64,000 nt of DNA from an uncultured Alphaproteobacteria bacterium (GTDB lineage Bacteria > Pseudomonadota > Alphaproteobacteria > RF32 > CAG-239), in assembly GCA_949297145.1 (NCBI GenBank), contig CASFQO010000002.1, positions 250,804-314,803 of the forward strand, given 5' to 3'. Position 1 is the stretch's first letter, and each line of letters opens with the position of its first letter. Shown here one piece after another: positions 9,034-36,526 of this stretch. The notes under the pieces were generated by a model. The model was not told the DNA's origin, ran no database searches, and worked only from the letters and a program-made list of their open reading frames with translations. The position numbers and the translations under genes are program-made.

Positions 9034-9897
9034 TTAACTTTCGGGCTCCACTTCAACATTGTTGTCTGTTTCCTTACTGTGCTTAAATCTTTTTTCGGCA
9101 GCGTTTTTTGCCTCTTTTCTCACTGCAATAATCAGACACATAAGAGTAAGAATAACAATAGTTCTAACGAGCCACTCAGAAGCGGCGTGATAAGAACATT
9201 TGATGAGAACAATATCACTATCCTCCAGTTTGGAAGAAGAAGCAAAAAAAGCCCCATCCCACTCATAAAAAAATTTAAAGTCGTCAGATTTCAGTCCGCT
9301 AACTGCGTCAATATTAAGCGACAACTCACTTTCTGTAACATGAGCAACTACAGGATTATTGTTTTTAGTCTGCGCAATAAAATCAAACAAATGAAATACG
9401 TTTAAGACAAAAACAATCACAATGCCCCACCAGATAGAATTAAGCACCGTTTGTCCTTTTGGGTTACCTTTTTCCAGAAGTTTAATTCCGAACAAAAACA
9501 AAAGCAACACGACAAAACCGATAAGAAACATAACCCACGGCGTAAAGGAACGAATAAAATCATGATAAGCCAATTTTGTGCAAAAAAGTTGCAAACCATT
9601 AGCCCTGTCTAAATTAACGTTAGCTACGACAGAAACATAACCTTCCGTAATATAGACATAGATTTTCTTATTCCAATCGATTTCTTCCCCACACCAACCC
9701 ATTCTGGCATATGTTGTCATATACGTCTTGGTTTTATGTACGGTATCCAATTCATCTTGAATTGTCAAAGACGCCTCATCGGGATTATATTTAGCAATTC
9801 CATAAGCACCTAAAGTACGCGGTCCGACATCTTCACAACTACGGAAACTGTAAACCATCAACAAGAACAGTCCCAAAAAAATCAAAAACTTTTTCAT
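9034..9897 (-). CDS. hypothetical membrane/secreted protein, 287 aa
   Basis: N-terminal signal-like segment MKKFLIFLGLFLLMVYSF plus several internal hydrophobic helices. Confidence 0.65.
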   Translation of the reverse strand: MKKFLIFLGLFLLMVYSFRSCEDVGPRTLGAYGIAKYNPDEASLTIQDELDTVHKTKTYMTTYARMGWCGEEIDWNKKIYVYITEGYVSVVANVNLDRANGLQLFCTKLAYHDFIRSFTPWVMFLIGFVVLLLFLFGIKLLEKGNPKGQTVLNSIWWGIVIVFVLNVFHLFDFIAQTKNNNPVVAHVTESELSLNIDAVSGLKSDDFKFFYEWDGAFFASSSKLEDSDIVLIKCSYHAASEWLVRTIVILTLMCLIIAVRKEAKNAAEKRFKHSKETDNNVEVEPES

Positions 9898-12052: not shown

Positions 12053-12880
12053 ATGGAAAAAAACATTAAAATTATTATCCGCAAATTAAATGCAATTGGA
12101 AACCAAATCGGTTACCCGTACTATTTTTATCCGGACGGCACCTATGGCAAAGAAAACATCAATGCCATCGTTAGCATTAAGGGGCCCCTCGGACAAGTGA
12201 AATTAAAAGAAGCCGCACCGACATACGCTTCTGTTGCCGAGCTTTATACGAAAGCTCTTGAAAAAGCAAATGTCCTGGACTATCTTTATTCAGACGGAAC
12301 TATTAGCCCCAAGCGCCTTAATCTGGAAATCGCCGGCGTTATCGGGTGGAAGAACCCTGATAAAGATGCGCCCATCGGCAAACGCGCCTTGTGCTTTACG
12401 TTTAACGGGTGGAAATATGATGACTTTATGAGTAACAACGACTTTAGTCAAAACAATCAATTTTCACCGCATAACATCAACAGCCCGCAAGGCATAAAAA
12501 ACAGTCAGCTTCTGCAAGACTTATCCGAGCAAAATCTCGTTAATATTCTGGCAGTCAATCATTGCTTAGAATATGCAGGCGAAGGTTTACAGGCAAATGA
12601 TTGTTTTTTGCCCTCTATCGAAGAAATCAAGCTGACCGAACCGGTATTTTTGGATTTAGTCGGAAAGATAGAAAATCTCAGTTACGGCACTTCCGATAAA
12701 GTACGTTCCAAGCGTTTTGGCACCAACTCAAGTTTATTAAAAAATTTCATTTTCACCTCAAACTTCGTGGCGCCCAATTCCATCATGTGTTATTTATATT
12801 ACCCCGGACAAGACAAAGGCAAGTTTTATGCCAAAGACTTGAACGATTGCGCCTGTATTGCTCCGGCTTTCTGGATATAA
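12053..12880 (+). CDS. hypothetical protein, 275 aa
   Basis: ORF with a promoter candidate and a strong terminator. No motif recognised. Confidence 0.65.
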   Translation: MEKNIKIIIRKLNAIGNQIGYPYYFYPDGTYGKENINAIVSIKGPLGQVKLKEAAPTYASVAELYTKALEKANVLDYLYSDGTISPKRLNLEIAGVIGWKNPDKDAPIGKRALCFTFNGWKYDDFMSNNDFSQNNQFSPHNINSPQGIKNSQLLQDLSEQNLVNILAVNHCLEYAGEGLQANDCFLPSIEEIKLTEPVFLDLVGKIENLSYGTSDKVRSKRFGTNSSLLKNFIFTSNFVAPNSIMCYLYYPGQDKGKFYAKDLNDCACIAPAFWI

Positions 12881-18862: not shown

Positions 18863-18889
18863 AAAAAAGCACCCCTTCTAAAGAGCGCT
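18863..18889 (-). terminator. rho-independent terminator (same sequence family as 19898-19924 and 20118-20145)
   Basis: On the minus strand: AGCGCUCUU / AAGGGGUGCU 9-bp stem (3 G.U) followed by U6, directly after the stop at 18891. Confidence 0.7.
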
Positions 18890-18890
18890 A

Positions 18891-19253
18891 TTAGTCACTA
18901 CGGCATCTATGCTCATTGTAATCATATACTTGACCGTTTTGCAAACAAAAAGCCACCGTTCTTGCTTCATAAATACCTGACACCAGATTATTCATGGCAC
19001 AATACCCTATAAAAGACACTACCGAGATGATGTATAGAATACGTTTATAACGAAATCTAAAAAAGAAAGCACAACCTAAAGAAATAAAACAAACAAGCAT
19101 TACAAAGGCATATGCAAATAAAACAATCCCCCTTATTGAGTTTTGAACAATAAAATAATCTTCTAAAAATGCTATCAATAACAAAGATAGAATAATGAAC
19201 TTAAAACTCAGGAATATTACCTTTTGTAATGTTATTTTTGTCATTTTACACAT
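18891..19253 (-). CDS. hypothetical small membrane protein, 120 aa
   Basis: Start at ATG 19253, 8 nt after the stop of the upstream SAA-like gene; the longer ORF-track start overlaps that gene. It has 3-4 hydrophobic helices and a Cys-containing tail. Confidence 0.6.
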   Translation of the reverse strand: MCKMTKITLQKVIFLSFKFIILSLLLIAFLEDYFIVQNSIRGIVLFAYAFVMLVCFISLGCAFFFRFRYKRILYIISVVSFIGYCAMNNLVSGIYEARTVAFCLQNGQVYDYNEHRCRSD

Positions 19254-19260
19254 TTCCTCT

Positions 19261-19791
19261 TCAATATCTTTTATAGTGTGTCGGACACGTTTCTTGTAAA
19301 CTTTTTCCTTGTCTAGCCCCTTCTCTCCCACGAGCATTTGCCCATAAATCACGCTTACAATCATCTATTGGATATTTAAAAATATCTTTTGCCTCTTTCA
19401 AATACCCACCAATAGTTGATACAACCGAGCCATACTTTCCCCGAGAAGCTGCCTCATAATGAGCTTTACAATGAAAGAACGTATCGCTAGTCTTCAATTC
19501 AAGTTCATTCATTTTATTAAAATTACGCCATAAATCTTTAACAGGAGCAACCAAGCCACTTCTAACTTTACCTTTAGGATATTGATAATCTTTTATATAA
19601 TTGTCAAGTTCTTTTGCTGTGGCATCTCCATAATGTTGGGTTTCTTTTGTCTCATCAATTCCCTGCTCTTTCATCAACATCTTAATCACTGTCCGGCGAT
19701 TGGATAAATCAAGCTTATTAATTGCCTCACGTTGATGATCTGTAATATTTAACTCACTAGGTATTTCCATAAAAAAATCAAAATCAGACAT
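19261..19791 (-). CDS. serum amyloid A (SAA)-like domain protein, 176 aa
   Basis: The C-terminal ~100 aa aligns without gaps to remembered human SAA1. [36 protein letters not shown] matches [51 protein letters not shown] matches DSLADQAANEWGRSG. Confidence 0.7.
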   Translation of the reverse strand: [176 protein letters not shown]

Positions 19792-19897
19792 ATTAAATTC
19801 CTTTCATAAAAAAAACGGCTAACATTTTGCCAACCGTTGCATTTAAACCAAAGAGCCGTACTCTCATATGCAGCTCAAGACACAAATAATCAGATAC

Positions 19898-20117
19898 AAA
19901 AAAGCACTCCTAAAAAAGAGCGCTATTTGAATTGGTAATCCCAATGGGCGGCCGCAAGAAAAAGTGCTAAAATGCACTTTTTCTAAGGAGGCGCAATGAG
20001 ACTTATTTTTCAGAGCAAGTGTAAACGCCGCTATTGAAAAATTTAGTCGGAAGTAAGAGCCTCCATTCGCTTTGCAAAAGCGATGGGTTCAAATCCCGTA
20101 AAAAATAGATTTAAAAC
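19898..20117 (-). repeat. tRNA-Glu-linked structured module, copy A (possible ncRNA or att-derived element)
   Basis: Roughly 94 percent identical by eye to copy B. It contains a tRNA-Glu 3'-end-like segment (19933-19948) and an 11-bp perfect hairpin (19957-19984). It also has an exact inverted copy of the tRNA-Glu T-arm (20083-20099) and its own terminator (19898-19924). Confidence 0.6.
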
Positions 20118-20345
20118 AAAAAAAGCGCTCTTTAGAAAGAGCGCTATTTGAATTGGTGATCCCAATGGGCGGCCGCAAGAAAAAGTACCCTTATGTACTT
20201 TTTCTAAGGAGACGCAATGAGACTTATTTTTCAGAGCAAGTGTAAACGCCGCTATTGAAAAATTTAGTCGGAAGTAAGAGCCTCTATTCGCTTTGCAAAA
20301 GCGATGGGGTCAAATCCCGTAAAACAGAAAAATAGATTTGAAACA
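20118..20345 (-). repeat. tRNA-Glu-linked structured module, copy B
   Basis: tRNA-Glu 3'-end-like segment at 20154-20169. The 11-bp hairpin at 20178-20205 differs from copy A by a compensatory G:C to A:T change. Inverted T-arm copy at 20304-20320 (1 mismatch) and terminator at 20118-20145. Confidence 0.6.
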
Positions 20346-20377
20346 CAAAAAGAGGAAGTATATACTTCCTCTTTTCT
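20346..20377 (-). terminator. rho-independent terminator of tRNA-Glu
   Basis: Perfect palindrome AGAGGAAGTATATACTTCCTCT, followed on the minus strand by UUUUUGUGUUU. Confidence 0.75.
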
Positions 20378-20380
20378 AAT

Positions 20381-20455
20381 TGGTGATCCCAACGGGATTT
20401 GAACCCATGTTACCGCCGTGAAAGGGCGATGTCCTAACCACTAGACGATGGGACC
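20381..20455 (-). tRNA. tRNA-Glu (anticodon UUC), CCA encoded
   Basis: Manual cloverleaf. Acceptor GGTCCCA/TGGGATC, anticodon stem TCGCC/GGCGG, loop CTTTCAC, T-arm ATGGG-TTCAAAT-CCCGT. Length 75 nt. Confidence 0.93.
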
Positions 20456-20602: not shown

Positions 20603-22117
20603 TTATTTTCGCGAAACAATCGCTTTCATCAAATCAACCGCCCCGGCATCTGCATTTTCACCAGATGAAGCAGAACTATTTTTTACATTATTTTCAACAG
20701 GTTGAGCGGATGAATTTTCATCTTTCACCGATTCACTTGCTTTTTCACCCAAAGAAGCCTTGTCAGAAGCATCCGGCTCAACAGAAACCGAAGAACTGTT
20801 CAAAGCATTCGGCTCAGACATTTTCTTAAACAAATTCTCTAACGCCTCATTAGCTTTTTGACTACGCGTAACTTGTTCTTCACGAGCTTGAACAGAAGAA
20901 GCAACTTCATCTGAAGCCTGCACCGCCAAAGCCTTTTTTTCATCAAGAGCATTTTGAATATTTTGAGACTTTTCTTGAACAAGTTCAACCTTTTCAGACA
21001 CTGTCTTTTGCACATTATCCTGCAACTGTTCCTTTTTATCCTGCAGAGCTTTTATCATATCAACCGGCGCATTGTCCGAAGACACATTAGAAGGAAGATT
21101 TTCTTTATTCGCCTCTTCTTTTATTGACGCTTTAAGAGGCTCGGTTCCTTCTTTTGCCACCGGGACCAATAGCGTTGGCTGATTATAAGAAGCCTCTTTA
21201 CCCTCTTCAACAACTTTTGCCTCTTGAGACATATTCTCTGGCGTAGTTTCTTTAGCCTCTGCCGCAACTGCTACTGCCTGAGATACCTGCTCCACAGCCT
21301 TATCTTGCGAAGGTTTAACCTCTTTGACAGTCATTTCATCCGTTTTTACAACCAGCGGTTCAGCCTCTTTTGCCACAACTTCTGGAGAGTTTGAAACCGT
21401 CTGAACATTTTGCGCTGGCTGAGACGTATGCGTTTCCGGAGTTTCAGCTTTTGGCGTTGCAACCACCTCCACACTTTCCTGCACGGCAACAACACCTTTG
21501 TCGCTATCATAAATTTCAATTTTTCCGGCTTCAAACACAGGCTGCGGTTGAGCTTGAACCGGTTTTGAAAGAGAACGCTCTTTAATTTGCCCCAAAGCCG
21601 ATTGCGGCCGTGAGATATTTTCCGCCTTTTGATGAATTTCTTGCAAAGATTGCGTTAATTCCGCCGCCCCATCGTGTGAAGAAACCTCTTTAGGTTGAAC
21701 CGCCTCTTTATTTTCCGGAGCTTTTTCATTTTCGGTTAAAGCTGAATTATTTTCTTTAACTTCAACATTTTGTTGTGATTTCTCCAAACTTTGCGCCAAC
21801 TTCTGCCCCAAAGACGGCTCCGCAACATTTTCCTTTTTCACCTCAGGAGTAGCAATATCTTGCGCTCTCGGCGCATTAAGTTCAGAAACCGGCGCTTTGG
21901 CCTCAAGAGGTGCTTTAATAGCCGCCTTCTCTTTGATATCTTTGACAGCACCGCCCTCTGTTTCGTTATAGTCAAAAATAACCGTAGCCGAGGACATTGG
22001 CGACACGGCATGATGATATTCAGCCACCCCGCCAACCACTAAAACCAACATCAAAAACAAAAACAGCAGTTCCACTCTGCCCTTTGCTTTTACTCTGGAG
22101 ACATCTTGATTATCCAT
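20603..22117 (-). CDS. membrane-anchored low-complexity protein, 504 aa
   Basis: N-terminal TM helix LLFLFLMLVLVVGGV followed by ~450 aa rich in E/K/A/V/Q/S. It lies 85 nt downstream of the phage-like block on the same strand. Whether it belongs to the block is unknown. Confidence 0.65.
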   Translation of the reverse strand: MDNQDVSRVKAKGRVELLFLFLMLVLVVGGVAEYHHAVSPMSSATVIFDYNETEGGAVKDIKEKAAIKAPLEAKAPVSELNAPRAQDIATPEVKKENVAEPSLGQKLAQSLEKSQQNVEVKENNSALTENEKAPENKEAVQPKEVSSHDGAAELTQSLQEIHQKAENISRPQSALGQIKERSLSKPVQAQPQPVFEAGKIEIYDSDKGVVAVQESVEVVATPKAETPETHTSQPAQNVQTVSNSPEVVAKEAEPLVVKTDEMTVKEVKPSQDKAVEQVSQAVAVAAEAKETTPENMSQEAKVVEEGKEASYNQPTLLVPVAKEGTEPLKASIKEEANKENLPSNVSSDNAPVDMIKALQDKKEQLQDNVQKTVSEKVELVQEKSQNIQNALDEKKALAVQASDEVASSVQAREEQVTRSQKANEALENLFKKMSEPNALNSSSVSVEPDASDKASLGEKASESVKDENSSAQPVENNVKNSSASSGENADAGAVDLMKAIVSRK

Positions 22118-22201
22118 AAAAAAACTCCGTCAAAAGAAAAAAACTAAGGCATTATAGAACTGCCGATATATAAATGCAAGTATTTACTTACACATACCCT
22201 C

Positions 22202-25200
22202 TTACCACATATCAAGTTTTTTCATAAAGCGAGAACGTGCTTTAGAGTGATACCGATTGGCATTAGAGAGCAGATTTTTGGCATCATCATTATACTTATC
22301 CCGATGCACCAGCACCGTATTGGTCAAATGATCCAGCCAGATCGTATAAAAATAGAACAACAAATCTTCATCCTCGTTTTCCGGATAAAGCTTATGATCG
22401 AGCGCATACAATAGCCGGTCCACAAAGATTTCCTCTGCGCCGTCGGTTACCGCCTCTTCTGCCGTAAAAAAGCGCCTTGGAATATCGGGCAAATATTTTT
22501 CCCCTTTTCGATAAAATAACCGATAACCATCATCGGCTTTAACCACTTCATAGTTTTCCAAAATAACTTTTCTAAACCGCTCCATCTCCCGGTTATAAAC
22601 AGCCGTTAAGTAAGAATTTCGGTTAAACTGCGAAGTCTGAAACAGTTGACTGAGATAGTGAAAAGTTTCGTGAACAATGGTTTCCGCATTAGCTTTTTCA
22701 AACAAATAAATTGTTTTATCCGCCATATCATAAGCCCCTCTTGCCATTGCCATATTCGTGGAGCTAATGGCATCAGGAACACTGGGCACCGTTTCATCAT
22801 CATCCGGAAGAATACGCTTGCTTTCGGGCAAAAACGGATATTGCGTATCCTCGCTGTCGGCATAATCGGCATACCGCTGCAGTGAGGCATAATTAAGTTT
22901 ACTTTTATCAACCATTGGTTCTTTTTTGGCATCATCCCAATAAGCAAAGCTCCTCTGCCAATCAGAATAATTTTGCCTTCTGAGCATCGCTCTCATGTCA
23001 ATATTTCCCTGAGATGCTTCCCCCATCCAAGGAAACGGCGCCGTGATATAATAGCCGGAAGAAATTCTCGCCCGAATAATCATTTCCATATTCATCTTGT
23101 GCCTTAAATCCATTAACTCCGAATATGCGAAATCAGCCAACTTTCGTTCATCCGGATCGAGCAGATATTGCCCGTATTTTTCATCCATTTTTTTAAACAC
23201 GGCATCAAAATCAATATCCGAATATTTAACGTGTTGCACAGATTGCGAAGACTTTGCAGTATTAGAGGGAGCGTTTTTGCTCTGGCTTTTATAAATGTCT
23301 AATAACGAAATCGGCATATCTTTTTCAACCACATAGTTTTTAGCGCGTTCTTCGGGCATATATCGCGCAAAAAACAAATCCAACCCGTTGATGATTTTGG
23401 GCATAACTTCCGCTTTAGCTAAATAGATATGCCTATCCATAAAGTTTTTCATCTGCGTCTCAGATAAGCTCAAATCAAAATGCTCCTTCATCTGAATAGC
23501 AAACGCCGCCCCTTTCATCAGCAAATCTTTAAGGTTAGCATAATCAAACATCCTCGGATCGATTTCCAAAACATCACTCTCAAGATTTCTGTCATGATAA
23601 AAGTGATATCCGTCATCGTTATTCAGCTCATCAAAACGCACCGTCACATCTTTAAGCTCCGGATAATTTTTATAGAGTTCTTCATGATCTAACAAATCCC
23701 CCAGCTTCATTTCCTTTTTATCAAGCAAAAGCTGACGTTCTGCCCAATACCGCCGCAGACTTTCATCCCCATCCTCAAGATGCTCCTGAACAAAAGCATT
23801 TGCGGCTTGAATATCGCGTTTTTCAGCCAATCTGGCAAAATCAAGCTCTTTATGAAACCGATAAATACGATACACCTGATCCAACAAATCGGCCATAGCG
23901 GTTTTTTCCATATATGTCATATAGCGATATTGCGGTTGAGCAAAAAATCTATCCACCATAGAGAGCGGGATGTGCGCATCGCGATAAAGCTTTTGCATAT
24001 AATTCATATTGAAATAAGGCTTATGAAAATCCCCCTGTCCGGCGAGATACATCCGATAAAACTTTTCTCTGTCAACATCTTCGTAAAAATCCTCAACATC
24101 GGGCAACCCTAAGCGTTTAATAGCCGCTTCACGTTTACCGGCCTGACGTTGCAAATCTTCATCAAGCGATTGCACATAATTTTCAAAAGCACTTGTTTTA
24201 ACGCCGGCTTTATTCAAAAACTTATCCAAACGCTCAATATTTTTATCCACATCAACGGCACTGCGCCAAATATCGCCAATAAAATTCAAATAAGAATATT
24301 CTTCCATCGCTGAACGAATAATTTTCATCTGTTCGCTCGTATAAATATTTCCGAGCGGCGGCACATTGGTGTTTGCGGACTGACGACTTTTAAGCGGCGC
24401 TCTGGTTGTATGTTCTGCCTCTTTTGCAGAGATATTCCGCAGTTCGGCATTCCATACCAAACGACCGTCAGTATCTTCTTTAAGAAGAAGAGCTATATGC
24501 TTTTTCTGACCGTCAATTTCAATCGGCAAAACCGCCTGATAATATGCCTTCGCATCAGGTTCTTTTTGGCGTCCCAAATTCTTTGGATAAAAGACACCCT
24601 TTTCAAGCAACATCGGTAAATACGGAATCAACATCTTGTGCGTATCATCCAAATTTCCCTCAAGCATTAAAGAAGGAGTACTTATTTCTATTTCGCGCTG
24701 AAGCGACGGATTATAAACTTTCATATTCTGATAAGTTGAAAGCAAGTCATTCATAGCCTGGTTAAAGTCTTCATCAGCTCCTTTTTTATAATCAGAAGAA
24801 CGCACAACCGCCAAAACATCTTGTGCCGTTCCCGATTGCTGTCCGCTTAGCTGTTCTTGCGCATTGGGAACTTCTGCATTTTCATTGGCTGAAACCAAAT
24901 GCCTTGTATCATTTTCATCCAAAACATCAAATTTTTCTCTGTCCATCAACACTTGCTTTAAGGTCATATCGCGCAATAAAGGCATTTCACTTGTCGCGTG
25001 CTGTTTATTTCTTTCAGAAAGATACATATACCCGTCTAACAGCCCTTGCACACGGGTCGCAACCTGTCCTTTTTCGTCTTCAATACGCTTTTCATAATTA
25101 TGTTCCGGATCAAGAATGGAAACATCGCCGGTTCGCCCTTGCTTAAAAGAAAAATGACCATTGTAATTTTTATCCAAAAACTCAATAAAATCATCATACA

Positions 25201-27283
25201 TATAGTTATAAAGTTCTTGAGCAAGACTACCGCCGCTTATAAGTGAATCTTCAAGAGAGCGCAGTTGAATAATATCCTGCGCTTCAATTTCTTCCAACTT
25301 ACGCACATAAGACTTCCAATATTGCTTCGGGAGTTCATCTTCTTTCACATTAAAATCAAGTTTAAGTTTGGCTTTAGCATCGCTGATTTCAAAGCGCCAC
25401 TTTCCGTCTGTTCCGCGATACCATCCGGTTTTATTCCAAATAAATCGCGGCATATAATCTTCCGCCTCCAAACGATACGCCTCACCGAGCCGCTTAAAAT
25501 CGGCATACTTAGCGTTAATTCCGCCAAATTGAAACAAGACCGAAGTATTGGGAGCTAAATTTTTCTTAAAATTTTCATACGTTGTTTGTTTCACTTCCGG
25601 AACATTTTCCATCAAGATTTTTTGTGGCGAAAAAGTCTTATCCACATCATACAAAGCCATCGCCGTCGCCTGCATCATACCGGCGGTAATTTGCGCTTTG
25701 CTTTTATCATTGGTAGCTTTAAGCGTCCGTTTATACATCGTATCATATATTTTTCTAAACGCTTTAATGTCTGCTTTCCGCAAGCTTCTATCTTGCGGCT
25801 CTGCTTCAGTCGCAGCCTTTTCCATAGCTTTGAGGTTTTGCTCCAATGAGTAAGATAACACTTTTCCGAAAGCTTCAGGCTTTTGTTGCAAAAACTCTAA
25901 CGTGCTTTTTTTAAAGAGTTCAATTTCTTCATCACTAACCCCTTTAAGCAACATCCGCTGCCGCACATCGTCATATGTTTTTCGCGCATAATAGATACTT
26001 CCGTCAGCACCCATCAAAGCCGACGTACCGGCAATTGCCCCCAATGCACTTTCAATCAATCCTTCAAAGAGTTCTTGGGTATCGTCAATACCGACTTTTC
26101 TAACCAAATTTTCTGCCAACAATTGCTGCAAAACTTCTGAACCGGCTTCACGAAGCGGCGCCCCGACAACTTCTTTGGCAATCATTTGAGACGTCATCTT
26201 AGCACTTTCGGAAATCTGTTTTGGCAACGGATTAAACAGCTTATCAATCACAAAAGTCGTTCCGCCCGAAAGCAAAGCCGCGGTGTTGGCGACATCAACA
26301 TTTTCATCTTTTTGATAAGACTCATTAAACACCTGCGCCGCACCGCCGCCTGCAAATAACAAATAAGTCGGCCCCGCCCCGATATATTTGGATAAAGCCC
26401 CCATCGTTAAAACTTGCGCCGAGCCCTGCCCCAAAACATTCGCCAATTTCGCCCAACTGGGGTCTGTGTTATACGCCTCGACAGACGGAGCCAAAACCGA
26501 ACTCGTATCTATCTTATCGGCATAATTTTGAAATTTATGACCGATATTTTTTAAGATAGACCCGGCTTTCGGTGCAAACAACGCTGCGCCGGATGTCATC
26601 ATACCGATTGTGAGGTTTTTATTTTCTATATTCGTCCCAAAATAAGACAACACATTTCCGACCATTCGCAAATTATCGGAAGTAAACCCTCTGGCACCGG
26701 CTTTAAGAGCTTCTTTACCAAACGCCCCCGCATCAAACTCACCCATATTCCCTTCATTATAAGCCCAAGTATAGTCAGCAACATCCTCACCCAAGCTCTC
26801 GAGCGCATTCCAATACGTCTGCACATCGGTTGCCTGCTTCAACCAATCTCCGATAACCTGAAAACTGGTATGCGGTTTATCAGCATTCACACTATCGGCA
26901 GAAATAACCGGAAATTGCAAATTGTGCTCTTCTTCCACATAAGTGAACGGCAAATCGGTACTTTTCTCGCCAAAATCAAGCTGCAAATCTTGCGCCCGGG
27001 GAGCAGTAGCCGTTGAGGCTCTCAAAGAAACGCCGCTATTTTGAAACGCACTATCATCAGAAGTTTGAGTATTGAATGCTTCTGAAACATCATCGGCCCC
27101 ATCATCCGGTAACTTCAGTAACGTCTGCGGAACTTCTGGGTTAAAAATAGACTGCGTTTCCTCATCATTCGTAACATTTGGCAAAACCGTTTGCTGAAGC
27201 TCATCATCGGCATAAGGAATAGGCGTTTGCATCAACCCCTCACCCGACGCAACGCCCTTAAAATCATCATCAACTTTATTCAT
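22202..27283 (-). CDS. giant virion-associated (ejection/polyvalent-like) protein with HExxH motif, 1693 aa
   Basis: Intact 5.1 kb ORF and the last gene of the block. A zincin-type HETFH motif is encoded at 22658-22672. Size and position correspond to the largest internal virion protein of T7-like phages; this is a positional inference only. Confidence 0.6.
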   Translation of the reverse strand: MNKVDDDFKGVASGEGLMQTPIPYADDELQQTVLPNVTNDEETQSIFNPEVPQTLLKLPDDGADDVSEAFNTQTSDDSAFQNSGVSLRASTATAPRAQDLQLDFGEKSTDLPFTYVEEEHNLQFPVISADSVNADKPHTSFQVIGDWLKQATDVQTYWNALESLGEDVADYTWAYNEGNMGEFDAGAFGKEALKAGARGFTSDNLRMVGNVLSYFGTNIENKNLTIGMMTSGAALFAPKAGSILKNIGHKFQNYADKIDTSSVLAPSVEAYNTDPSWAKLANVLGQGSAQVLTMGALSKYIGAGPTYLLFAGGGAAQVFNESYQKDENVDVANTAALLSGGTTFVIDKLFNPLPKQISESAKMTSQMIAKEVVGAPLREAGSEVLQQLLAENLVRKVGIDDTQELFEGLIESALGAIAGTSALMGADGSIYYARKTYDDVRQRMLLKGVSDEEIELFKKSTLEFLQQKPEAFGKVLSYSLEQNLKAMEKAATEAEPQDRSLRKADIKAFRKIYDTMYKRTLKATNDKSKAQITAGMMQATAMALYDVDKTFSPQKILMENVPEVKQTTYENFKKNLAPNTSVLFQFGGINAKYADFKRLGEAYRLEAEDYMPRFIWNKTGWYRGTDGKWRFEISDAKAKLKLDFNVKEDELPKQYWKSYVRKLEEIEAQDIIQLRSLEDSLISGGSLAQELYNYMYDDFIEFLDKNYNGHFSFKQGRTGDVSILDPEHNYEKRIEDEKGQVATRVQGLLDGYMYLSERNKQHATSEMPLLRDMTLKQVLMDREKFDVLDENDTRHLVSANENAEVPNAQEQLSGQQSGTAQDVLAVVRSSDYKKGADEDFNQAMNDLLSTYQNMKVYNPSLQREIEISTPSLMLEGNLDDTHKMLIPYLPMLLEKGVFYPKNLGRQKEPDAKAYYQAVLPIEIDGQKKHIALLLKEDTDGRLVWNAELRNISAKEAEHTTRAPLKSRQSANTNVPPLGNIYTSEQMKIIRSAMEEYSYLNFIGDIWRSAVDVDKNIERLDKFLNKAGVKTSAFENYVQSLDEDLQRQAGKREAAIKRLGLPDVEDFYEDVDREKFYRMYLAGQGDFHKPYFNMNYMQKLYRDAHIPLSMVDRFFAQPQYRYMTYMEKTAMADLLDQVYRIYRFHKELDFARLAEKRDIQAANAFVQEHLEDGDESLRRYWAERQLLLDKKEMKLGDLLDHEELYKNYPELKDVTVRFDELNNDDGYHFYHDRNLESDVLEIDPRMFDYANLKDLLMKGAAFAIQMKEHFDLSLSETQMKNFMDRHIYLAKAEVMPKIINGLDLFFARYMPEERAKNYVVEKDMPISLLDIYKSQSKNAPSNTAKSSQSVQHVKYSDIDFDAVFKKMDEKYGQYLLDPDERKLADFAYSELMDLRHKMNMEMIIRARISSGYYITAPFPWMGEASQGNIDMRAMLRRQNYSDWQRSFAYWDDAKKEPMVDKSKLNYASLQRYADYADSEDTQYPFLPESKRILPDDDETVPSVPDAISSTNMAMARGAYDMADKTIYLFEKANAETIVHETFHYLSQLFQTSQFNRNSYLTAVYNREMERFRKVILENYEVVKADDGYRLFYRKGEKYLPDIPRRFFTAEEAVTDGAEEIFVDRLLYALDHKLYPENEDEDLLFYFYTIWLDHLTNTVLVHRDKYNDDAKNLLSNANRYHSKARSRFMKKLDMW

Positions 27284-27311
27284 ATCAAATCCTACCTTAA
27301 AACAAAAACCA

Positions 27312-28973
27312 TTAACCCCTCATCACCGCCAATCGTCCCTGAAAATAGAATTTTTCACCGGGAGCCAAATCAGCCTCTGCCAATTCTTCATAAGAATCAA
27401 ATTGCGGATAATTAAGTTCTTTGCGCTGCTCCTCACGAGCAATTTGACGCATCGTTTCAATTTTATCTTCGGCAAACGGCGCCAAAGACGCATATTTTTT
27501 CCAAATACGCGCAACATCCGTTCCCGCATAAGCCGATTGAAGCGCTCTTTTTAATTCGCCAAACGTTACCGCATCTTTTTGAGCATTGGTTTTAAGCATC
27601 ATATCTTTGATAACGCCGTCCAAAGCAAGCCTGCTGATTTTCTTTTCCTGAAGCGGCGTCAACTGCCCGCCGTTTTGTTGCAAAGAAGACGCCAAAGCCG
27701 TTTTTGTGGCATAGTAATTTTGATAAATATCCAACGCAAATTTAGCCTTGTCTTCCATCAACTGCTGCGCTATAAAATTCCCCCTCGTAGATGCTGCAGA
27801 TAAATCAGCCGCAAAGGCTTTATCTACCAGCGCATCAACTTCTTTATCAAACATCATTTCAGCCGTCGGCTTATCGCTTTGCGCTGCCAAGAGTTGATTT
27901 TGCAAAGCCGAAACTTCTTCTAAGCCAAGTTTGTTTTGGTGATAAGCATTGATAAGATAATTAGACGCATCACTGATTTCTTGAGCAGAAAGTTGCGTTC
28001 CTTCGTTCATCTTGCGCACCAAGCGATAAACCTCGCTCAAAGGGGTTAAACTTCTCTCTTCGTCATCTCCCCAAATATCAACCGTTTGCAGAGATTTTTC
28101 GCCGTTTGCATTTGATACCGTATTTTTTTGCCGCAAAACAAAATATTGTGCCGGAGAAATATCGCCATGCTCTTTTTGTTGCCACAAACTTTGCGCCTCG
28201 CTCAAACGATTGAGCAAATCCAATCTTTCACGTTTAGCCTGATCTTGCTGTTGTGCCGTTGCGATTAAAGATTTTGTCTCTTGAATTTGAGCTTTAAGCT
28301 GTTTCTTTTCCGCCTCATCATCAACATACATATCAACCGCACGAGAGGCCGCTTCGGGATTATTTAGCGCCGCATTAAGAATACCGGTTTTAAGATACCC
28401 TTGCCGATAATTCTTTTTATCCGGTTCCGTTAAAAACGGCGTCTTTTGAATTTCATCCGTCCCCATCTCTAAAAGTTTGCTGACCTTTGCTGCATCACCG
28501 TTATCGGCCAATAAATTTTGATTATCCGCCAACATAGAGTTAAGACTTTGCTTACCGAAATCAATTTGCTTCTCCGCCACAATTTTTTTCGTATCGTCAT
28601 GATGCGCCGCCAAGATATTATCGCCGTGTTTTTTCCAAAACGCCCTTGCCTTTTCATCACCATCAAATTGCGCCGCCAAAACCTTATCGCCATCTTTGAC
28701 CATGTTCTGCAACTCATCAGGCGTTGCGGCGTTTTGCAAAGCCTCTCGCGTTGCCTTAAGCGAAACATCTGCCTGCATAGCCAAACGTTCATCTTCCGTC
28801 TTTTGCATTTTATCAGCCAATGTGTTTGCCGCCTCAAGCAGAGCCGAATCAACATAAAGCGAAGAATCCGAGGCCAAAAATCGTCTTGCCGGAGACGTAA
28901 TTTGCGCCGCCACCGGTCTTTTAAGCATAGCGCCGCCTAATCTCATAAAAGGAACTTTTTGTCTGTTTGCCAT
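27312..28973 (-). CDS. phage internal/ejection-like protein, 553 aa
   Basis: Start at ATG 28973 with an AGGAGAG RBS; the longer ORF-track start overlaps the upstream gene. A/Q/K/E-rich and helical. Function inferred from position only. Confidence 0.5.
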   Translation of the reverse strand: MANRQKVPFMRLGGAMLKRPVAAQITSPARRFLASDSSLYVDSALLEAANTLADKMQKTEDERLAMQADVSLKATREALQNAATPDELQNMVKDGDKVLAAQFDGDEKARAFWKKHGDNILAAHHDDTKKIVAEKQIDFGKQSLNSMLADNQNLLADNGDAAKVSKLLEMGTDEIQKTPFLTEPDKKNYRQGYLKTGILNAALNNPEAASRAVDMYVDDEAEKKQLKAQIQETKSLIATAQQQDQAKRERLDLLNRLSEAQSLWQQKEHGDISPAQYFVLRQKNTVSNANGEKSLQTVDIWGDDEERSLTPLSEVYRLVRKMNEGTQLSAQEISDASNYLINAYHQNKLGLEEVSALQNQLLAAQSDKPTAEMMFDKEVDALVDKAFAADLSAASTRGNFIAQQLMEDKAKFALDIYQNYYATKTALASSLQQNGGQLTPLQEKKISRLALDGVIKDMMLKTNAQKDAVTFGELKRALQSAYAGTDVARIWKKYASLAPFAEDKIETMRQIAREEQRKELNYPQFDSYEELAEADLAPGEKFYFQGRLAVMRG

Positions 28974-28989
28974 CTTATCTCTCCTAAAC

Positions 28990-29451
28990 TTAAAACAAAG
29001 AAGAAAGCGAAGATGAAAGCCCGCTGAGCAAATTGCCGCTAAAACGATTTTGCCCCTCTTTGCGATATTGTTTAGCGTTGGCCTCTTCAACCATCGCCTG
29101 ATACAAATAGTTTTCAGCCTCGCTTTCAACACGATATCTTTCGTTTAAGATATTCTGTTCAAGCGCCGCAGAAGTCGTCGCCAGTGCGGTTGTCGTTGTC
29201 GGACTTTCGCCCATCCCCGCTTCACCGGCAGCAGCCGAAGCCGAAGCAACGGTTGCTCTTTTTTGCGAGCGCATAGCATCTTCGTTTTGAGCCCCGCTCA
29301 AGCGGATATTCGCTGCATTTTGCCTATAAACTTGTGCATTTTGTAACGCCAGTTGCGCCTGTTTTTCATATTGATTTTGTTCTTCTTTTCCTTTTAAGAA
29401 ACCGGAAGCAAAATCAATTCCGGCTTTAATTAAGAGTGCCTGAGCCACCAT
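28990..29451 (-). CDS. phage small internal-protein-like protein, 153 aa
   Basis: Start at ATG 29451 with an AAAGGAG RBS. A/Q/S-rich. Function inferred from position only. Confidence 0.45.
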   Translation of the reverse strand: MVAQALLIKAGIDFASGFLKGKEEQNQYEKQAQLALQNAQVYRQNAANIRLSGAQNEDAMRSQKRATVASASAAAGEAGMGESPTTTTALATTSAALEQNILNERYRVESEAENYLYQAMVEEANAKQYRKEGQNRFSGNLLSGLSSSLSSLF

Positions 29452-29938
29452 AATAAAAACTCCTTTCATAAAGTTGATAATTTTTCCCATCAAAAAAATT
29501 TTCCATCACACGCACCGGAACAAACCCGAGCATCAACGCCAAGCGCTTCGCCTGCCAAAAATCATCCCTCACCGTCATCACCACCTGTTTGATTTTTAAG
29601 CGAGCCGCTTCGTGGGCGATTTCTTTTTCTAAAAACCGAACCAGCGTTAAAAGTTTTCCCCCGATATTCTGCCCAATGAGCGCATAACACTGCGCCGTTT
29701 TTTCGTTGTTATCAAAAAACACCTCAAACCCGCATACGGCCAACACTTCTCCATCGTCGTTAATTAACGTATAAGCCCGAACCCGCTCAAATCCGTCCGC
29801 AAAAGTTTGCGCCTCAGCCGCTTGTTGTGCTTGTAACAGAATTTTCTTTGCGTCGCCTGATTGATAATCTCTAATCATCTTCTCACCCATAAAAAAAGAG
29901 GCAATATCTGCCCCTTTTAAGACCTCAAAACCAAGCAC
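29426..29938 (-). CDS. GNAT-like acetyltransferase-fold protein, 170 aa
   Basis: GNAT-like C-terminal pattern KIKQVVMTVRDDFWQAKRLALMLGFVPV...GKNYQLYER. GTG start at 29938 overlaps the previous stop by 1 nt. Internal ATGs lie at 29890 and 29878. Confidence 0.45.
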   Translation of the reverse strand: MLGFEVLKGADIASFFMGEKMIRDYQSGDAKKILLQAQQAAEAQTFADGFERVRAYTLINDDGEVLAVCGFEVFFDNNEKTAQCYALIGQNIGGKLLTLVRFLEKEIAHEAARLKIKQVVMTVRDDFWQAKRLALMLGFVPVRVMENFFDGKNYQLYERSFYYGGSGTLN

Positions 29939-32076
29939 TATTCCGCCACATCCAAATACGGCACAATCGCCAAAATATTAAGAGGCAACGGCGAAGTTGT
30001 CTGGATTAAGAGATTAGCAGCCTGTTCTTTTTGCGTTGTTGAGCCGTCAAACAAAATCTCTTTATTTCCGCTAAACAATTCTTCCGGTTCATTCATTAAA
30101 GCATCCGTATCACGGTAAAGAATATCGGTTAAAGATTTTTCGTCTTCACCGATTTGTCCCCCGCCGGAAAGATAAAGCGAAAGCAACACATGATTGATGC
30201 GTTGTTTTTGCCCGATACCACTGCCGAATTCATTAGGGATATAAACATTTTGCGGTATAAATTGACTGCAAACTGCAAGCCCGACAATAAGGTGCGAAAT
30301 ATTTTTGGGCGCCTCAATCTGCCCGTTATAAACAACCCCGGTGCCCAAAACCGCCCCATCGCCAAAAAGCATCACCTCTTTTCCTTCTAAGTGCTCCAAA
30401 CCGGAGAGAACAGAGGTTTCGGTGTCATTGGTTTTATCAAAAACAACCGTTGCATCCAGATAAACGGAATTTTGCCGGATATAGCGTGCCTCTTGAGCGT
30501 TTTTGGTCTGCCAATCACTAAAGTCAGTCGTCGCCACCGGAAGTGCCTGCGGCATACCGCTATCCATCCACTCCACGGTTCTGAGATAGGCGTTATTAAC
30601 CACTCTTCGCACTTCTAGCCATAATTCGTCACGATTGTCATCCAAGTTTGGGATAACCGTCAAACTCTCCACCGTTCCCGAAACATCATGCCTCGAAAAA
30701 GCCGCCACTTCTTGCTCAGAAGAAAAAGTCACCGCCGCCAAACTGCCGTCGCCGATTAAACACCATAACACTTTATCCGGCACTTCCTGATAAACCATCG
30801 CCACAATGCGGGATTGAAACAAATGTTTTCCGAGAATAGACACATCCGTCTGATCATAACCGTCGTTATAATAGTTATACATCAAGTCGCGCAAACTCAA
30901 ACCATATCGGTCCACAAACAAAACGTGCGCCCCGATTGCCACCGGCATAATCGCCTTGCTCCCGACCGTAGAAATCTGAGAAATGCGAATATTATCGGCT
31001 GCCATCGCCTGAGAAGCCGTAATCGCGTCAATATAAAACTCAGCCGCCCCCGTCCCCACAAAAAGCGCATCACGAGCATAAATCCATTTTCCCTCATTAA
31101 ATTCGGTACTGAGTACCGGCACGGTAATTGCCGTTTCAGCCGTAGCTTCTCCGCAATCCATATCAGCAAAATTATTATAGTCGCCCGAATAAGACAAACA
31201 AACATTAGGACCTGTTTCCGAATTAACCAAAAACGCAAATCTGTTTCTGAAAAAAGCACCGGAAATCGGATAAGAACTCCCCTGATGAATCATCCCCAAT
31301 TCCCAACAAACCGTCCCCTTTTCAAGCGCATCCGGCAAGCGAGAAATCACTTCCGCCGTCACATGTTGAGCATCGGTAAATTCGCTGATTTTGACCAACC
31401 CGATACCATCGTGAACATATTGCCACGACACATTACCGTCCGAGCGCGTTCCTTCGCTGTGTACCGGTTTAATTGCCCCCGTCTGACCGGCACCGACCGC
31501 CATATAATATTTGTTATCGGAAGTACGAATTTCCAAAGCTGAAACATTAGTCCCCGCACTCCATGGTTTGGTCTCATCATCAAGCACTCTCAAGCGCACC
31601 AATCTTCCGACATCTGTTTGAGAAAAAATATCCGTTGAAGCGGTTAATTGCGTTGTGCCTGTTTTTTCTGTAACGCTAATCATTGTTTCGGTCGTATTCA
31701 TACTCAAAAAAGGCCCGTTTTTAAGCTCCAATTCTTCCAAACGCCAATCATCATTAGCATATCGTTTAAGCAGCATAATCGGATGGTTCGCATTAAAAAT
31801 ATACATAATGTCAGAATGCTGAATGGTCTGAATTTTGCAACACAATTCATCATCATCCCACAAATCGCTGTACGTATAAGGAGAAGTCAGCTCAAACGGC
31901 GGAAAAGCCTCATCGGGTTCCTCCGTTGTACCCCCGCCGCCTTCGGTCACGATATTATGCTGACGTACCAATGCTCTCTGTGCATAAAGCCTGATTTTAA
32001 GATGGCTGAATTCCACCACATACGCCACTCTGTGGCTATACTTAAACGGAAACAAAAAACTTCTCGCATTAGACAT
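29938..32076 (-). CDS. tail tubular protein B / nozzle-like protein, 712 aa
   Basis: Size and position after the adaptor-like gene. No motif-level proof. Confidence 0.45.
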   Translation of the reverse strand: MSNARSFLFPFKYSHRVAYVVEFSHLKIRLYAQRALVRQHNIVTEGGGGTTEEPDEAFPPFELTSPYTYSDLWDDDELCCKIQTIQHSDIMYIFNANHPIMLLKRYANDDWRLEELELKNGPFLSMNTTETMISVTEKTGTTQLTASTDIFSQTDVGRLVRLRVLDDETKPWSAGTNVSALEIRTSDNKYYMAVGAGQTGAIKPVHSEGTRSDGNVSWQYVHDGIGLVKISEFTDAQHVTAEVISRLPDALEKGTVCWELGMIHQGSSYPISGAFFRNRFAFLVNSETGPNVCLSYSGDYNNFADMDCGEATAETAITVPVLSTEFNEGKWIYARDALFVGTGAAEFYIDAITASQAMAADNIRISQISTVGSKAIMPVAIGAHVLFVDRYGLSLRDLMYNYYNDGYDQTDVSILGKHLFQSRIVAMVYQEVPDKVLWCLIGDGSLAAVTFSSEQEVAAFSRHDVSGTVESLTVIPNLDDNRDELWLEVRRVVNNAYLRTVEWMDSGMPQALPVATTDFSDWQTKNAQEARYIRQNSVYLDATVVFDKTNDTETSVLSGLEHLEGKEVMLFGDGAVLGTGVVYNGQIEAPKNISHLIVGLAVCSQFIPQNVYIPNEFGSGIGQKQRINHVLLSLYLSGGGQIGEDEKSLTDILYRDTDALMNEPEELFSGNKEILFDGSTTQKEQAANLLIQTTSPLPLNILAIVPYLDVAE

Positions 32077-33136
32077 GACTTTTTCCTTTCAACTCCCAAA
32101 CCAAACGCCCCTTATAATAAACTTTCAAAACATTACCGGAAACGACCCCGACATAATCGTTATCTTCCATAATATACTTTCCGTCCTCATCTTCCGGCCA
32201 ATAACTTAATCGAGCCGTCAAATAATCAATTCCGCCGATGCACGAACCATCCTCATCATAATACCATATAACAATAACATCTTCCGCCGCGCCTCTAACG
32301 GCAACACAAGGCGTGTAATATACACCGCCGACTTTAATTATGGCGTTATACAAGTCATAGTTTGTTTTAAAAAACATCTCGTCGCTGACAACATAGTTTG
32401 CATCAGGCGCCGTATCGCCATAGTTGAAAACAACACCCAAATACCCGTTAGAAAATTTAATCACCCAACTTTTATAGAAATAATCACTGGATAAAAAGAC
32501 TGCACACCCGACAAACTTTTCCAAATTTCCCCAATCACCATAATCAATCTGCGCCAGTTCATCAGGCTCCAAAACAACGCTTAAAGTTTCATTACCCGTC
32601 ACCAAAACCGACCCGCTTTGCAAAATATATCCGTCTTTATACACCTGATATTCAACCGTAGAATTTTTCAAAACTCGCACAGATTGACGTTTATATCCAT
32701 TCAGCACAATTGTTGCATCAAGAGGTTCTGCTACTACCGTAAACGTTAGTAATTCGGATTTGGAAACAAGCGCCACTTCAAGAGAAGTATCTTCTAAAAC
32801 CACATAATTTCCGCTGCTTTCCGAATATCCGTCATAACTGACCTCATAATAAAGTTTATCCCCTCTGGCAACACGAATAGATGATCTCTCCACCCCGTTA
32901 ATCAAAACTTTCGCTTCCGATGGTGTAGGCACAATTTGAAATAAAATATCCTCATCAACCGGCGTCTGCGCCACAAAATGCGTTCCGCCGCGGCGTTTTA
33001 AGCTCCCCTCCACCAAAGGAATAAAATTCCGGCAAAGCTTCGCCGTTTTATCATATTTAGCAATATCCGTTCGTCCTTGCAGCCACGGACTAAGTTCGCC
33101 GCCGTTAAACTGCATTCTTGTCGGTTTAATACTCAT
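32069..33136 (-). CDS. virion/tail-associated protein with PEGA-like repeats, 355 aa
   Basis: Two PEGA-like segments: VLINGVERSSIRVARGDKLYYEVSYDGY and IVLNGYKRQSVRVLKNSTVEYQVYKDGY. The gene overlaps the next one by 8 nt. Confidence 0.45.
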   Translation of the reverse strand: MSIKPTRMQFNGGELSPWLQGRTDIAKYDKTAKLCRNFIPLVEGSLKRRGGTHFVAQTPVDEDILFQIVPTPSEAKVLINGVERSSIRVARGDKLYYEVSYDGYSESSGNYVVLEDTSLEVALVSKSELLTFTVVAEPLDATIVLNGYKRQSVRVLKNSTVEYQVYKDGYILQSGSVLVTGNETLSVVLEPDELAQIDYGDWGNLEKFVGCAVFLSSDYFYKSWVIKFSNGYLGVVFNYGDTAPDANYVVSDEMFFKTNYDLYNAIIKVGGVYYTPCVAVRGAAEDVIVIWYYDEDGSCIGGIDYLTARLSYWPEDEDGKYIMEDNDYVGVVSGNVLKVYYKGRLVWELKGKSHV

Positions 33137-33199
33137 TTTTGCATATCTCCCAAATAAACAGCGCCCGAAAAACGGATACGCATCTCAAAACATCAACAA

Positions 33200-36517: not shown

Positions 36518-36526
36518 TTTTCTCCT

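Follow-up and report, generated by a model that had tools for sequence, protein, structure and literature searches.

Introduction

Integrase-less elements that are flanked by attachment (att) sites and accrete in tandem are known from the ICESt1/ICESt3 family of Streptococcus (PMC5704250). In Dehalococcoides, islands occur in variable tandem number downstream of a single small-RNA gene, ssrA, each delimited by a 20-bp repeat of its 3' end; some of them lack an integration module and were proposed to be mobilised in cis, and a conserved difference of the repeats from the gene marks the insertion point (PMC3146451). Prochlorococcus islands seeded by tycheposons show repeated integration at the same tRNA gene, with partial tRNA copies between the elements and, deeper in the island, degenerate remnants and additional partial tRNAs (bioRxiv 10.1101/2020.12.28.424599), and tRNA fragments left by integration are a general phenomenon (PMC9897764). 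Here we analyse a stretch of 64,000 nucleotides of contig CASFQO010000002.1 (assembly GCA_949297145.1, positions 250,804 to 314,803) from an uncultured alphaproteobacterium, referred to as the window in the following, in which two gene-less structured modules stand in tandem behind tRNA-Glu(UUC). An earlier interpretation made without database searches (the sequence-only reading) had considered the modules either as small RNAs with tRNA-like ends or as accreted miniature att-bounded elements. Judged by the comparison with related loci, the modules are probably integrase-less, gene-less miniature integrative units of about 220 bp, similar to the cis-mobilizable elements (CIMEs) of Streptococcus, which accreted at tRNA 3' ends.

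Like the units described here, CIMEs are devoid of an integrase and transfer genes of their own. The array shares with them an intact target tRNA gene on one side and a directly repeated copy of the tRNA 3' end (TTGGGATYACCAAT) on the other, a polymorphism of presence and absence with a precise empty site (subject to an assembly caveat discussed below) and the lack of integration and transfer genes inside the units; it departs from them in that no cognate recombinase was found in the window, in the related contig L041 or among the called genes of the related loci. CIMEs are decayed integrative and conjugative or integrative and mobilizable elements of kilobases, whereas the units here measure 0.2-4 kb and the modules are gene-less; moreover, no related integrase-bearing element occurs in the loci seen, and a left-arm motif matching the tRNA is not a described feature of CIMEs. 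The islands of Dehalococcoides are typically of phage-genome size, 16 of them carry a serine-recombinase module (dsiB) by attL, and their crossover lies in the T-loop, whereas single operons or 220-bp gene-less modules are found here, no such recombinase module is present, and the switch is located at the terminal ACCA plus two nucleotides. Tycheposons carry their own tyrosine recombinase and replication genes, and no gene-less structured mini-unit has been described for them; the host here belongs to uncultured alphaproteobacteria known only from metagenome assemblies. The arrays differ from the described cases in unit size, in the recurrence of gene-less structured units across clades, in the lack of a recombinase gene in the loci seen and in the tRNA-matched motif.

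Results

The loci analysed contain discrete units with a tRNA-derived core, which are stacked in tandem, vary in content between strains, are missing from an empty site, include cargo units with the same arms and recur at three tRNA genes.

Organization of the array behind tRNA-Glu(UUC)

Tandem Repeats Finder and a repeat search located a tandem repeat at 19898-20324 with a period of 221 and 93% matches, which corresponds to unit B, proximal to the tRNA, and unit A, distal to it (Table 1); the two are 93-94% identical. The tandem period, the T-arm copies, the tRNA-like tails and the six elements per module that the sequence-only reading had listed were all recovered. Read on the tRNA strand, the first of the six elements of each module is an inverted copy of the tRNA-Glu T-arm (ATGGGTTCAAATCCCGT on the plus strand), which is exact in unit A and has one mismatch in unit B; the 17-nt T-arm has three matches in the window, compared with 0.01 expected by chance. 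Next to it stands a 7-bp hairpin (20288-20304 in unit B). A long-range helix, GGAGGC/GCCTCC in unit A (20059-20064/19987-19992) and AGAGGC/GTCTCC with one A.C mismatch and one G.U pair in unit B, encloses a stem formed by ATTTTTCA and TGAAAAAT (20035-20042/20005-20012 in A, 20256-20263/20226-20233 in B). Between the two units, the stems of the subsequent 11-bp hairpin differ by a single change of G:C to A:T and the loops at four of six positions. The palindrome GCGGCCGC (19948-19955 and 20169-20176) and the tail CCCATTGGGAT(C/T)ACCAAT (20152-20169 and 19931-19948) complete the module. Tail copies are spaced 227 and 221 bp apart, the third copy being the tRNA itself, and TTGGGATYACCAAT is found three times, in the tRNA and at each unit end, with an expectation of 0.06. 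The acceptor-like pairing between the two ends of a module comprises six of seven positions, with a fixed mismatch at the third pair.

No credible open reading frame (ORF) was found in the two modules, and the ORFs of 40-42 amino acids (aa) on their minus strand run through terminators and were judged spurious. On the plus strand each module (about 19992-20037 and 20213-20258) carries a strong Shine-Dalgarno-like AAGGAG(G/A), four bases and an ORF of 13 codons, MRLIFQSKCKRRY. Its length is constant across the variants, but its substitutions are mostly non-synonymous in our own translation, and it was rejected as a coding sequence.

The terminator of unit A, the native terminator of tRNA-Glu and the terminator at the end of a neighbouring operon, described below, belong to one family and are 83-87% alike, in agreement with the sequence-only reading. 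The terminator AGAGGAAGTATATACTTCCTCT directly after the tRNA is unrelated to these three.

Junctions and position of the crossover

Alignment of the junctions revealed several unrelated types on the left side (GGGATC, GGGATT, TTAAGCATC, GGTTTC and ATAATTGTC) and several unrelated terminators and arms on the right. Left and right types combine freely and meet at ACCAAT, the ACCA of the tRNA plus two nucleotides; the limits of a unit are therefore the first base behind one ACCAAT and the last base of the following ACCAAT. In L022, one of the related loci, the left arm that comes after a module tail is of a different type and leads a unit with MarR and lactamase genes; this unit in turn has a different right end (GAGTTAAGCATCACCAAT) and is followed by a module-type left arm leading a 351-aa gene. 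The tRNA-derived flanking repeat measures between 6 and about 130 nt; the upper value comes from L044, and L006 has about 57 nt.

The variant GGGATT is present at the right ends of units in the window, in L036/L037 and in L041, and the tRNA always has GGGATC. Since an exchange further to the left would move GGGATT into the tRNA, the crossover is placed to the right of the C/T position of the tail and not in the T-loop, where the sequence-only reading had sought the target; it would fall within ACCAAT. In this view the tail is the att repeat at a unit junction, and the terminator that had been assigned to each module as its own is the first feature of the next unit; the one credited to module B (20124-20145) belongs to unit A. 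The terminator behind the last unit would likewise be the native one of the tRNA, and the tail would represent the right arm of the unit.

Empty site, copy number and cargo in related strains

About 45 related metagenomic loci (L numbers) were compared, and contigs of the same locus were retrieved from metagenome assemblies via the identical serum amyloid A (SAA)-like protein encoded at 19261-19791. Two of them, L004 and L005, represent the empty site, in which the ACCAAT of tRNA-Glu passes directly into the native terminator and then into GTATCTGATTATTTG without any module. This GTATCTGATTATTTG flank is exactly the sequence beyond the distal module of the window. One unit, which constitutes a distinct variant, is present in L006 and L008, and two units each in L001, L002, L007 and the window. 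Copy number, whose variation between strains the sequence-only reading had brought up, is thus 0, 1 or 2 units, with the reservation that assembly may collapse tandem units.

Genes are found in further units of the same kind. Behind the tRNA-Glu of L021 two modules, and behind that of L022 one module, are followed by a unit with MarR and a metallo-beta-lactamase-fold protein and by a unit with the 351-aa gene. L009 contains a module-type left arm (ACGGAATTTGAACCCGTCGCTTTTAACAAAGCGAATGGAGGC...), a 353-aa gene and the right end ...GTCACCAAT. In L012 and L013, from a more distant and GC-poorer organism, ...GAGTTAAGYATCACCAAT stands between successive groups of genes, together with a terminator and a conserved arm. 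What cargo units and ORF-less modules have in common is limited to the first 50-90 nt and the last 10-25 nt. A module segment of about 28 nt (ACACTTGCTCTGAAAAATAAGTCTCATT, window 19995-20022) was seen inverted in the left arm of the 351/353-aa unit (1660-1690 in L009, 3895-3925 in L022), where it carries an internal deletion (AATGAG..CAAGTGT); this suggests a small inversion or a hairpin-mediated rearrangement.

The single unit of L003 is a chimera whose left part is of type B and whose right part is of type A, and L006 is a mosaic of the opposite order; both would fit homologous exchange between units. Intergenic flanks of L001-L006 are 97-100% identical to the window and those of L009, L021 and L022 82%. 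A fresh tandem duplication in situ was rejected, as the terminator of unit B is unrelated and units A and B are only 94% identical, compared with 97-100% for the flanks of the closest strains. An exact-pattern scan for the window-type module returned one match in GTDB genomes (L011) and none in JGI metagenomes and IMG/VR.

The same layout at tRNA-Glu(CUC) and tRNA-Met

The SAA homologue led to a second clade (L036-L039), to which a pattern scan of JGI metagenomes added four contigs (L041-L044); no viral contig matched the second-family pattern. Behind tRNA-Glu(CUC) this clade has a terminator, then one or two modules of about 135 nt without an ORF and an SAA operon bounded by ...ACCAAT; in L039 and L044 the SAA unit itself has the initial 65 nt of the module as its left arm. 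According to nhmmer and local alignment, these second-family modules share only the tail with the window modules in sequence; the two families appear to have the same layout and are not proven homologues. The palindromic T-arm-like halves of the second family, TTGAACTC-N7-GAGTTCGA, match the T-arm of their own tRNA, with a GAG/CTC stem instead of GGG/CCC.

A further module of the second family, truncated by the window end, follows tRNA-Met(CAU) (profile match at 63887-63999). The halves TCGAACC/GGTTCGA of its hairpin (63892-63913) match the T-arm of tRNA-Met (GTAGGTTCGAG). On L048, which continues the same scaffold, the tail of this module, GTCCAAAGGCACCCACC, copies the 3' end of tRNA-Met. Next to this tail comes an SAA-like unit in inverted orientation, with repeats of 34 nt on its two sides whose first letters are ACCCACC. 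In every module family examined, the T-arm-like motif matches the local tRNA, be it Glu-UUC, Glu-CUC or Met.

Structure of the module interior

The window module has a fold z-score of about -5, and its two strands fold equally well (-65.7 and -66.1 kcal/mol). Among nine distinct window-type modules 96% of the helix cells are paired, and three helix pairs show compensatory or wobble-mediated changes: in the long-range helix one pair runs through G-C, A.C and A-U and another is G.U in most variants, G-C in unit A and A-U in L021, and the 11-bp hairpin occurs in two haplotypes with a G-C/A-U difference. This covariation was matched by 3 of 500 column shuffles. Members of the second family have in common the T-arm-like hairpin, a GC-rich centre in the shape of a Y and a 4-bp hairpin. 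The stems of this family differ in a compensatory manner between the versions at tRNA-Glu(CUC) and tRNA-Met (TATGC/GCATA, TAGGC/GCCTA, TCAGCC/GGCTGA, TAAGCC/GGCTTA), conserved sequence blocks exist also outside the helices, and the sense strand folds better than the antisense strand in six of six sequences. On a MAFFT alignment, 66 of 500 shuffles reached the observed covariation of the second family, which is not significant. A few compensatory changes, for which the sequence-only reading had proposed a search in related genomes, are present in the internal helices. At imperfect helix positions of the tRNA-sense strand a tally by hand gave 12 G.U against 5 A.C in the window type and 19 against 6 in the second family. 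We regard the local hairpins as real and probably under constraint, be it as RNA, as folded single-stranded DNA or as protein sites.

Other parts of the structure are less constant. The acceptor-like stem, with its fixed mismatch, is paired in 84% of cells of the window type; in the second family the figure is 59%, and the stem is not conserved there. L011, L021 and L022 no longer have the GCGGCCGC palindrome, L021 shows internal deletions as well, and of the long helices only the 5' halves remain in cargo units. No sigma-70-like promoter was found on the module strand, and a strong terminator precedes every module. ARAGORN reported only the three true tRNAs of the window and no tRNA or transfer-messenger RNA (tmRNA) in the modules. 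Rfam searches of the window, L041, L043 and L044 at gathering and permissive thresholds gave only small-RNA noise far below threshold over the modules, which agrees with the statement of the sequence-only reading that no described RNA family is involved.

The SAA operon as a candidate cassette

Adjacent to the array, a bacterial homologue of serum amyloid A (Pfam PF00277) and a small membrane protein (18891-19244) are encoded on the minus strand, and the operon ends in the terminator that belongs to the family described above. The sequence GTGACTAAT before this terminator may tentatively be viewed as a junction that has decayed; the SAA operon (18891-19791) would then be a unit of older date. 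The homologous operon forms a unit between ...ACCAAT junctions in L036, L038, L039 and L044, and the second, inverted SAA-like copy behind tRNA-Met lies just past the window end (L048 7517-8311). The SAA homologue and the membrane protein behave as a mobile cassette.

About 20 nt upstream of the SAA start codon a terminator-like hairpin, AACGGTTGGCAAAATGTTAGCCGTT, is followed by a T run (19814-19838, minus strand); it could be an attenuator or a further insulating terminator. Homologues of the SAA protein with 67% identity were detected in unrelated chromosomal contexts, e.g., after tuf, in L028, L029 and L030, metagenome contigs of other samples, the record names of which begin with Hadza_. 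In loci of the L028 type an intergenic element of about 380 nt with short repeats of the CGATACAAAA type precedes the SAA homologue and is repeated before the next gene (L028 4620-5000 and 5785-6160). This element is a different inter-gene repeat system from the tRNA-anchored arrays.

Neighbouring genes

Upstream of tRNA-Glu extends a podovirus-like cluster of structural genes (20603-40598, minus strand), in which no lysogeny or replication genes were recognised and which could be a prophage remnant or a domesticated particle. At least its tRNA-proximal end, consisting of the polyvalent protein and the following gene of about 500 aa, is found upstream of tRNA-Glu in most related strains. The cluster was rejected as the integrated element, as it lies upstream and not downstream of the tRNA and no repeat of the tRNA end occurs at its far side. 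Upstream of the tRNA-Glu(CUC) array, L041 (2728-6376) encodes a DNA-methyltransferase-like protein and a 945-aa protein with faint ART-PolyVal similarity, which echoes the polyvalent protein of the window. Ten ORFs of the window with 275-863 aa have no match in Pfam or NCBIfam, and the two beside tRNA-Gly have no PDB sequence match either; the lineage is poorly represented in annotated databases.

Table 1. Features of the array, of the second anchor and of the neighbourhood in the window.
Feature	Position	Strand	Evidence or remark
tRNA-Glu(UUC), array anchor (putative attB-bearing gene); T-arm 20392-20408	20381-20455	minus	ARAGORN; Rfam RF00005, 62.4 bits
Junction 1, ACCAAT core (ACCA of the tRNA + AT): end of tRNA, start of unit B	20379-20384	minus	rightward sequence strain-dependent (L004 empty site vs window)
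Unit B, proximal module, 227 bp, without ORF, from junction 1 to end of junction 2 (ACCAAT 20152-20157)	20152-20378	minus	nhmmer profile match 20154-20320, E 1.6e-61
Unit B left-end terminator, AGAGGAAGTATATACTTCCTCT + T run; now terminates tRNA-Glu	20351-20372	minus	inverted-repeat search; comparison with L004, L006
Inverted tRNA-Glu T-arm copy, unit B, 16/17	20304-20320	minus	repeat and motif searches
11-bp hairpin, unit B, GTAC...GTAC haplotype, terminator-like in either orientation	20178-20205	minus	
Unit A, distal module, 221 bp, without ORF, ending in junction 3 (ACCAAT 19931-19936 after unit-specific GGGATT)	19931-20151	minus	nhmmer 19933-20099, E 2.2e-59
Unit A left-end terminator	20124-20145	minus	
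Inverted tRNA-Glu T-arm copy, unit A, 17/17	20083-20099	minus	repeat and motif searches
Unit A interior: 7-bp hairpin 20067-20083 and long-range helix enclosing stem	19987-20083	minus	equivalent layout in unit B 20208-20304
11-bp hairpin, unit A, GTGC...GCAC haplotype	19957-19984	minus	
Original downstream flank of tRNA-Glu: native terminator 19903-19924, then GTATCTGATTATTTG	19881-19930	minus	layout identical to L004/L005 empty site
Terminator of the same family, end of SAA operon, preceded by GTGACTAAT	18868-18898 (hairpin 18868-18889)	minus	
tRNA-Met(CAU), second anchor in the window	63751-63827	plus	ARAGORN, Rfam
ORF-less second-family module after tRNA-Met and terminator 63842-63859; truncated by window end	63874-64000	plus	nhmmer E 6.5e-13 and 9.5e-24
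Podovirus-like cluster: large terminase	39279-40598	minus	
Podovirus-like cluster: T7-type portal	36527-38317	minus	
Podovirus-like cluster: scaffold and capsid	34308-35960	minus	
Podovirus-like cluster: tail tube	33200-33835	minus	
Podovirus-like cluster: head fibre	32069-33136	minus	
Podovirus-like cluster: nozzle	29938-32076	minus	
Podovirus-like cluster: LPD23 polyvalent protein, 1693 aa	22202-27283	minus	
Orphan ORFs	2371-4962, 7381-8877, 9034-9897, 12053-12880, 27312-29132, 41690-45860, 46810-47937, 48347-49789, 51953-53728		

Discussion

Of the two explanations offered by the sequence-only reading, that of accreted miniature att-bounded elements is upheld by the empty site, the strains with one or two units, the cargo units and the repeats of the tRNA 3' end; only the target in the T-loop has to be given up, and the part of integrases, none of which was found, in leaving the elements is putative. 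Each copy would be non-autonomous and would have entered the last bases of tRNA-Glu through conservative site-specific recombination. A unit, in the order of the tRNA strand, consists of its own rho-independent terminator, a conserved left arm with the inverted T-arm and the 7-bp hairpin, a short structured interior and the right arm CCCATTGGGAT(C/T)ACCAAT. In the circular form, right arm, core, terminator and left arm would constitute the attP site, which recombines with the core that closes the tRNA or any unit already resident. Transcription of the tRNA would then stop at the newly arrived terminator, and the displaced sequence would shift one step outward. Further units would insert head to tail because every unit ends in the same core, and homologous recombination between units would delete or reshuffle them. 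The enzyme would probably be a tyrosine-type integrase encoded elsewhere in the genome. Shared cores of 6-7 bp are typical of the overlap regions of tyrosine recombinases. We infer that the T-arm-like motifs and hairpins of the left arm serve as recognition or accessory sites of the integrase and that the 11-bp hairpin remains from a cargo terminator. The ORF-less units, with both arms and a short structured centre, would be minimal derivatives or minimal selfish members of a cargo-carrying family.

Several observations weigh against this model. Pfam searches returned no recombinase, integrase or transposase in the units, in the window ORFs scanned (nearly all of at least 150 aa) or in the 12-kb contig L041, and PHROGs, NCBIfam and PDB sequence searches on the window ORFs and L041 gave no recombinase either. 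No recombinase domain was present in the called genes of the related loci; the 353-aa cargo protein has neither a PHROGs match nor a precomputed Pfam domain, and the other cargo genes have only unrelated precomputed domains. The integrase genes that the sequence-only reading had thought might bound the units were thus found neither in the units nor in the window or the related loci. Scans of IMG/VR with the arm patterns revealed no phage or element carrying the arms, and the enzyme is accordingly hypothetical; the tRNA-tail pattern occurred there only in tRNA arrays of jumbo phages and at one chance site. No circular or excised form was observed. Moreover, short-read assembly can collapse tandem units that are 94% identical, and some of the copy-number differences, especially that of L003, may be artefacts; this caveat leaves the empty site, the distinct variants and the cargo units unaffected. 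Integrases are not known to require, in their attP arms, a T-arm-like motif that is inverted or palindromic and varies with the local tRNA, and the model does not explain this motif. Finally, the compensatory and G.U changes and the strand preference of the second family point to a single-stranded structure of RNA or DNA over a plain protein-binding duplex.

These structural signals are at the heart of a rival explanation that we regard as unlikely, according to which the modules are primarily genes of structured small RNAs on the tRNA strand, with a T-arm-complementary segment and a tRNA-like 3' end. They would be expressed by read-through from the tRNA or from an unrecognised promoter and trimmed like a tRNA, and the att-like repeats would be a mere vehicle. 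The nearly complete pairing of the window-type helices with compensatory pairs that few shuffles match, the fold z-score, the excess of G.U over A.C on the tRNA-sense strand and, in the second family, the recurrent structure, compensatory stems, conserved blocks outside the helices and the uniformly better folding of the sense strand speak in its favour. Against this stand the strong terminator before each module, the lack of a sigma-70-like promoter on its strand, the equal folding of both strands in the window modules and the non-significant covariation and poorly paired acceptor-like stem of the second family. The loss of the palindrome in three loci, the cargo units with only 5' helix halves, the internal deletions of L021 and the lack of an Rfam or ARAGORN match point in the same direction. 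Tail and terminators are fully explained by tandem att junctions, and processing in the manner of tRNA-Glu, as the sequence-only reading had envisaged, is not supported. In addition, the sample is shallow and closely related, so that a few compensatory events weigh little, and palindrome-templated repair could also yield them. The ORF-less module might also act as an active specificity device instead of being a scar, an idea we consider decidedly improbable. In this case a fold of single-stranded RNA or DNA would display the T-arm-matched motif beside the copy of the tRNA 3' end, and the folded module would allow a recombinase encoded elsewhere to insert small gene cassettes behind that tRNA. 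Such a system would be integron-like, docked to a tRNA and retargetable (Glu-UUC, Glu-CUC, Met) by a change of the motif, and comparable in logic to IS110 bridge RNAs or to integron attC sites that act in folded form.

In a further rival explanation, local duplication or slippage of the tRNA 3' end and terminator, followed by homologous recombination between conserved inter-unit sequences, e.g., after DNA uptake from other strains, would have built the arrays without a dedicated recombinase. The long direct repeats of L006 and L044 suffice for RecA-dependent exchange, and the mosaics of L003 and L006 are expected products of homologous exchange. However, unit B and the native flank have terminators of unrelated sequence, and unit types whose arms are unrelated meet at a core of just 6-9 nt, which does not suffice for homologous recombination. 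Units with entirely different cargo are delimited by this short core in three clades and behind two other tRNA genes (Glu-CUC and Met), and the window units differ more from each other than the flanks do between the closest strains. We therefore hold an origin without a recombinase to be highly improbable and retain the integrative units as the best explanation.

Other classes of elements were considered and rejected. The arrays resemble integrons in outline, with small promoter-poor cassettes of one to a few genes arranged head to tail, a conserved, hairpin-rich recombination region with a variable structured centre, and gene-less cassettes. In integrons, intI and attI are adjacent, whereas the array here starts at a tRNA gene without a tyrosine recombinase match; the genes upstream of it encode phage structural proteins in the window and efflux functions in L036. 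Integron boundaries are GTTRRRY with the R''/L''/L'/R' architecture of attC, whereas ACCAAT (tRNA-Glu) or CCCACC (tRNA-Met) is found here without an attC architecture. GTTAAGC is present in some right ends of units, and no inverted partner was seen in the flanking sequence inspected; with neither intI/attI nor inverted core sites, membership among attC sites was dismissed. A miniature inverted-repeat transposable element or another derivative of an insertion sequence (IS) does not fit, as terminal inverted repeats are missing from the unit ends and the flanking repeat is tRNA-derived and of varying length. IS200/IS605 ends were set aside because the left-end hairpins differ completely between units, and a Xer/dif site did not fit in a comparison by eye with dif consensus sequences. 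Neither a tRNA, a tmRNA nor a tRNA-like RNA was recognised. The Brt small RNAs of Bartonella, of about 200 nt and with a genus-specific sequence, lie immediately upstream of a helix-turn-helix regulator gene; no such gene follows the modules, and they were set apart by their description, in which no linkage to tRNA genes is mentioned (PMC5387305).

If the modules are indeed integrative units, they would represent an extreme miniaturisation of tRNA-anchored gene capture, in which a unit consists only of recombination ends or of a single operon and is mobilised wholly in trans. For annotation, a tRNA 3'-end fragment followed by a terminator would then mark a cassette boundary and not a pseudo-tRNA or a small RNA. 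The combination of a tRNA-tracking T-arm motif with helices that tolerate compensatory change would make it directly testable whether the target tRNA is chosen via a folded nucleic acid or by protein-DNA contacts alone. For these poorly known uncultured alphaproteobacteria, in which the system was found, the array would be a hot spot for the exchange of accessory genes between strains, including a bacterial homologue of serum amyloid A.

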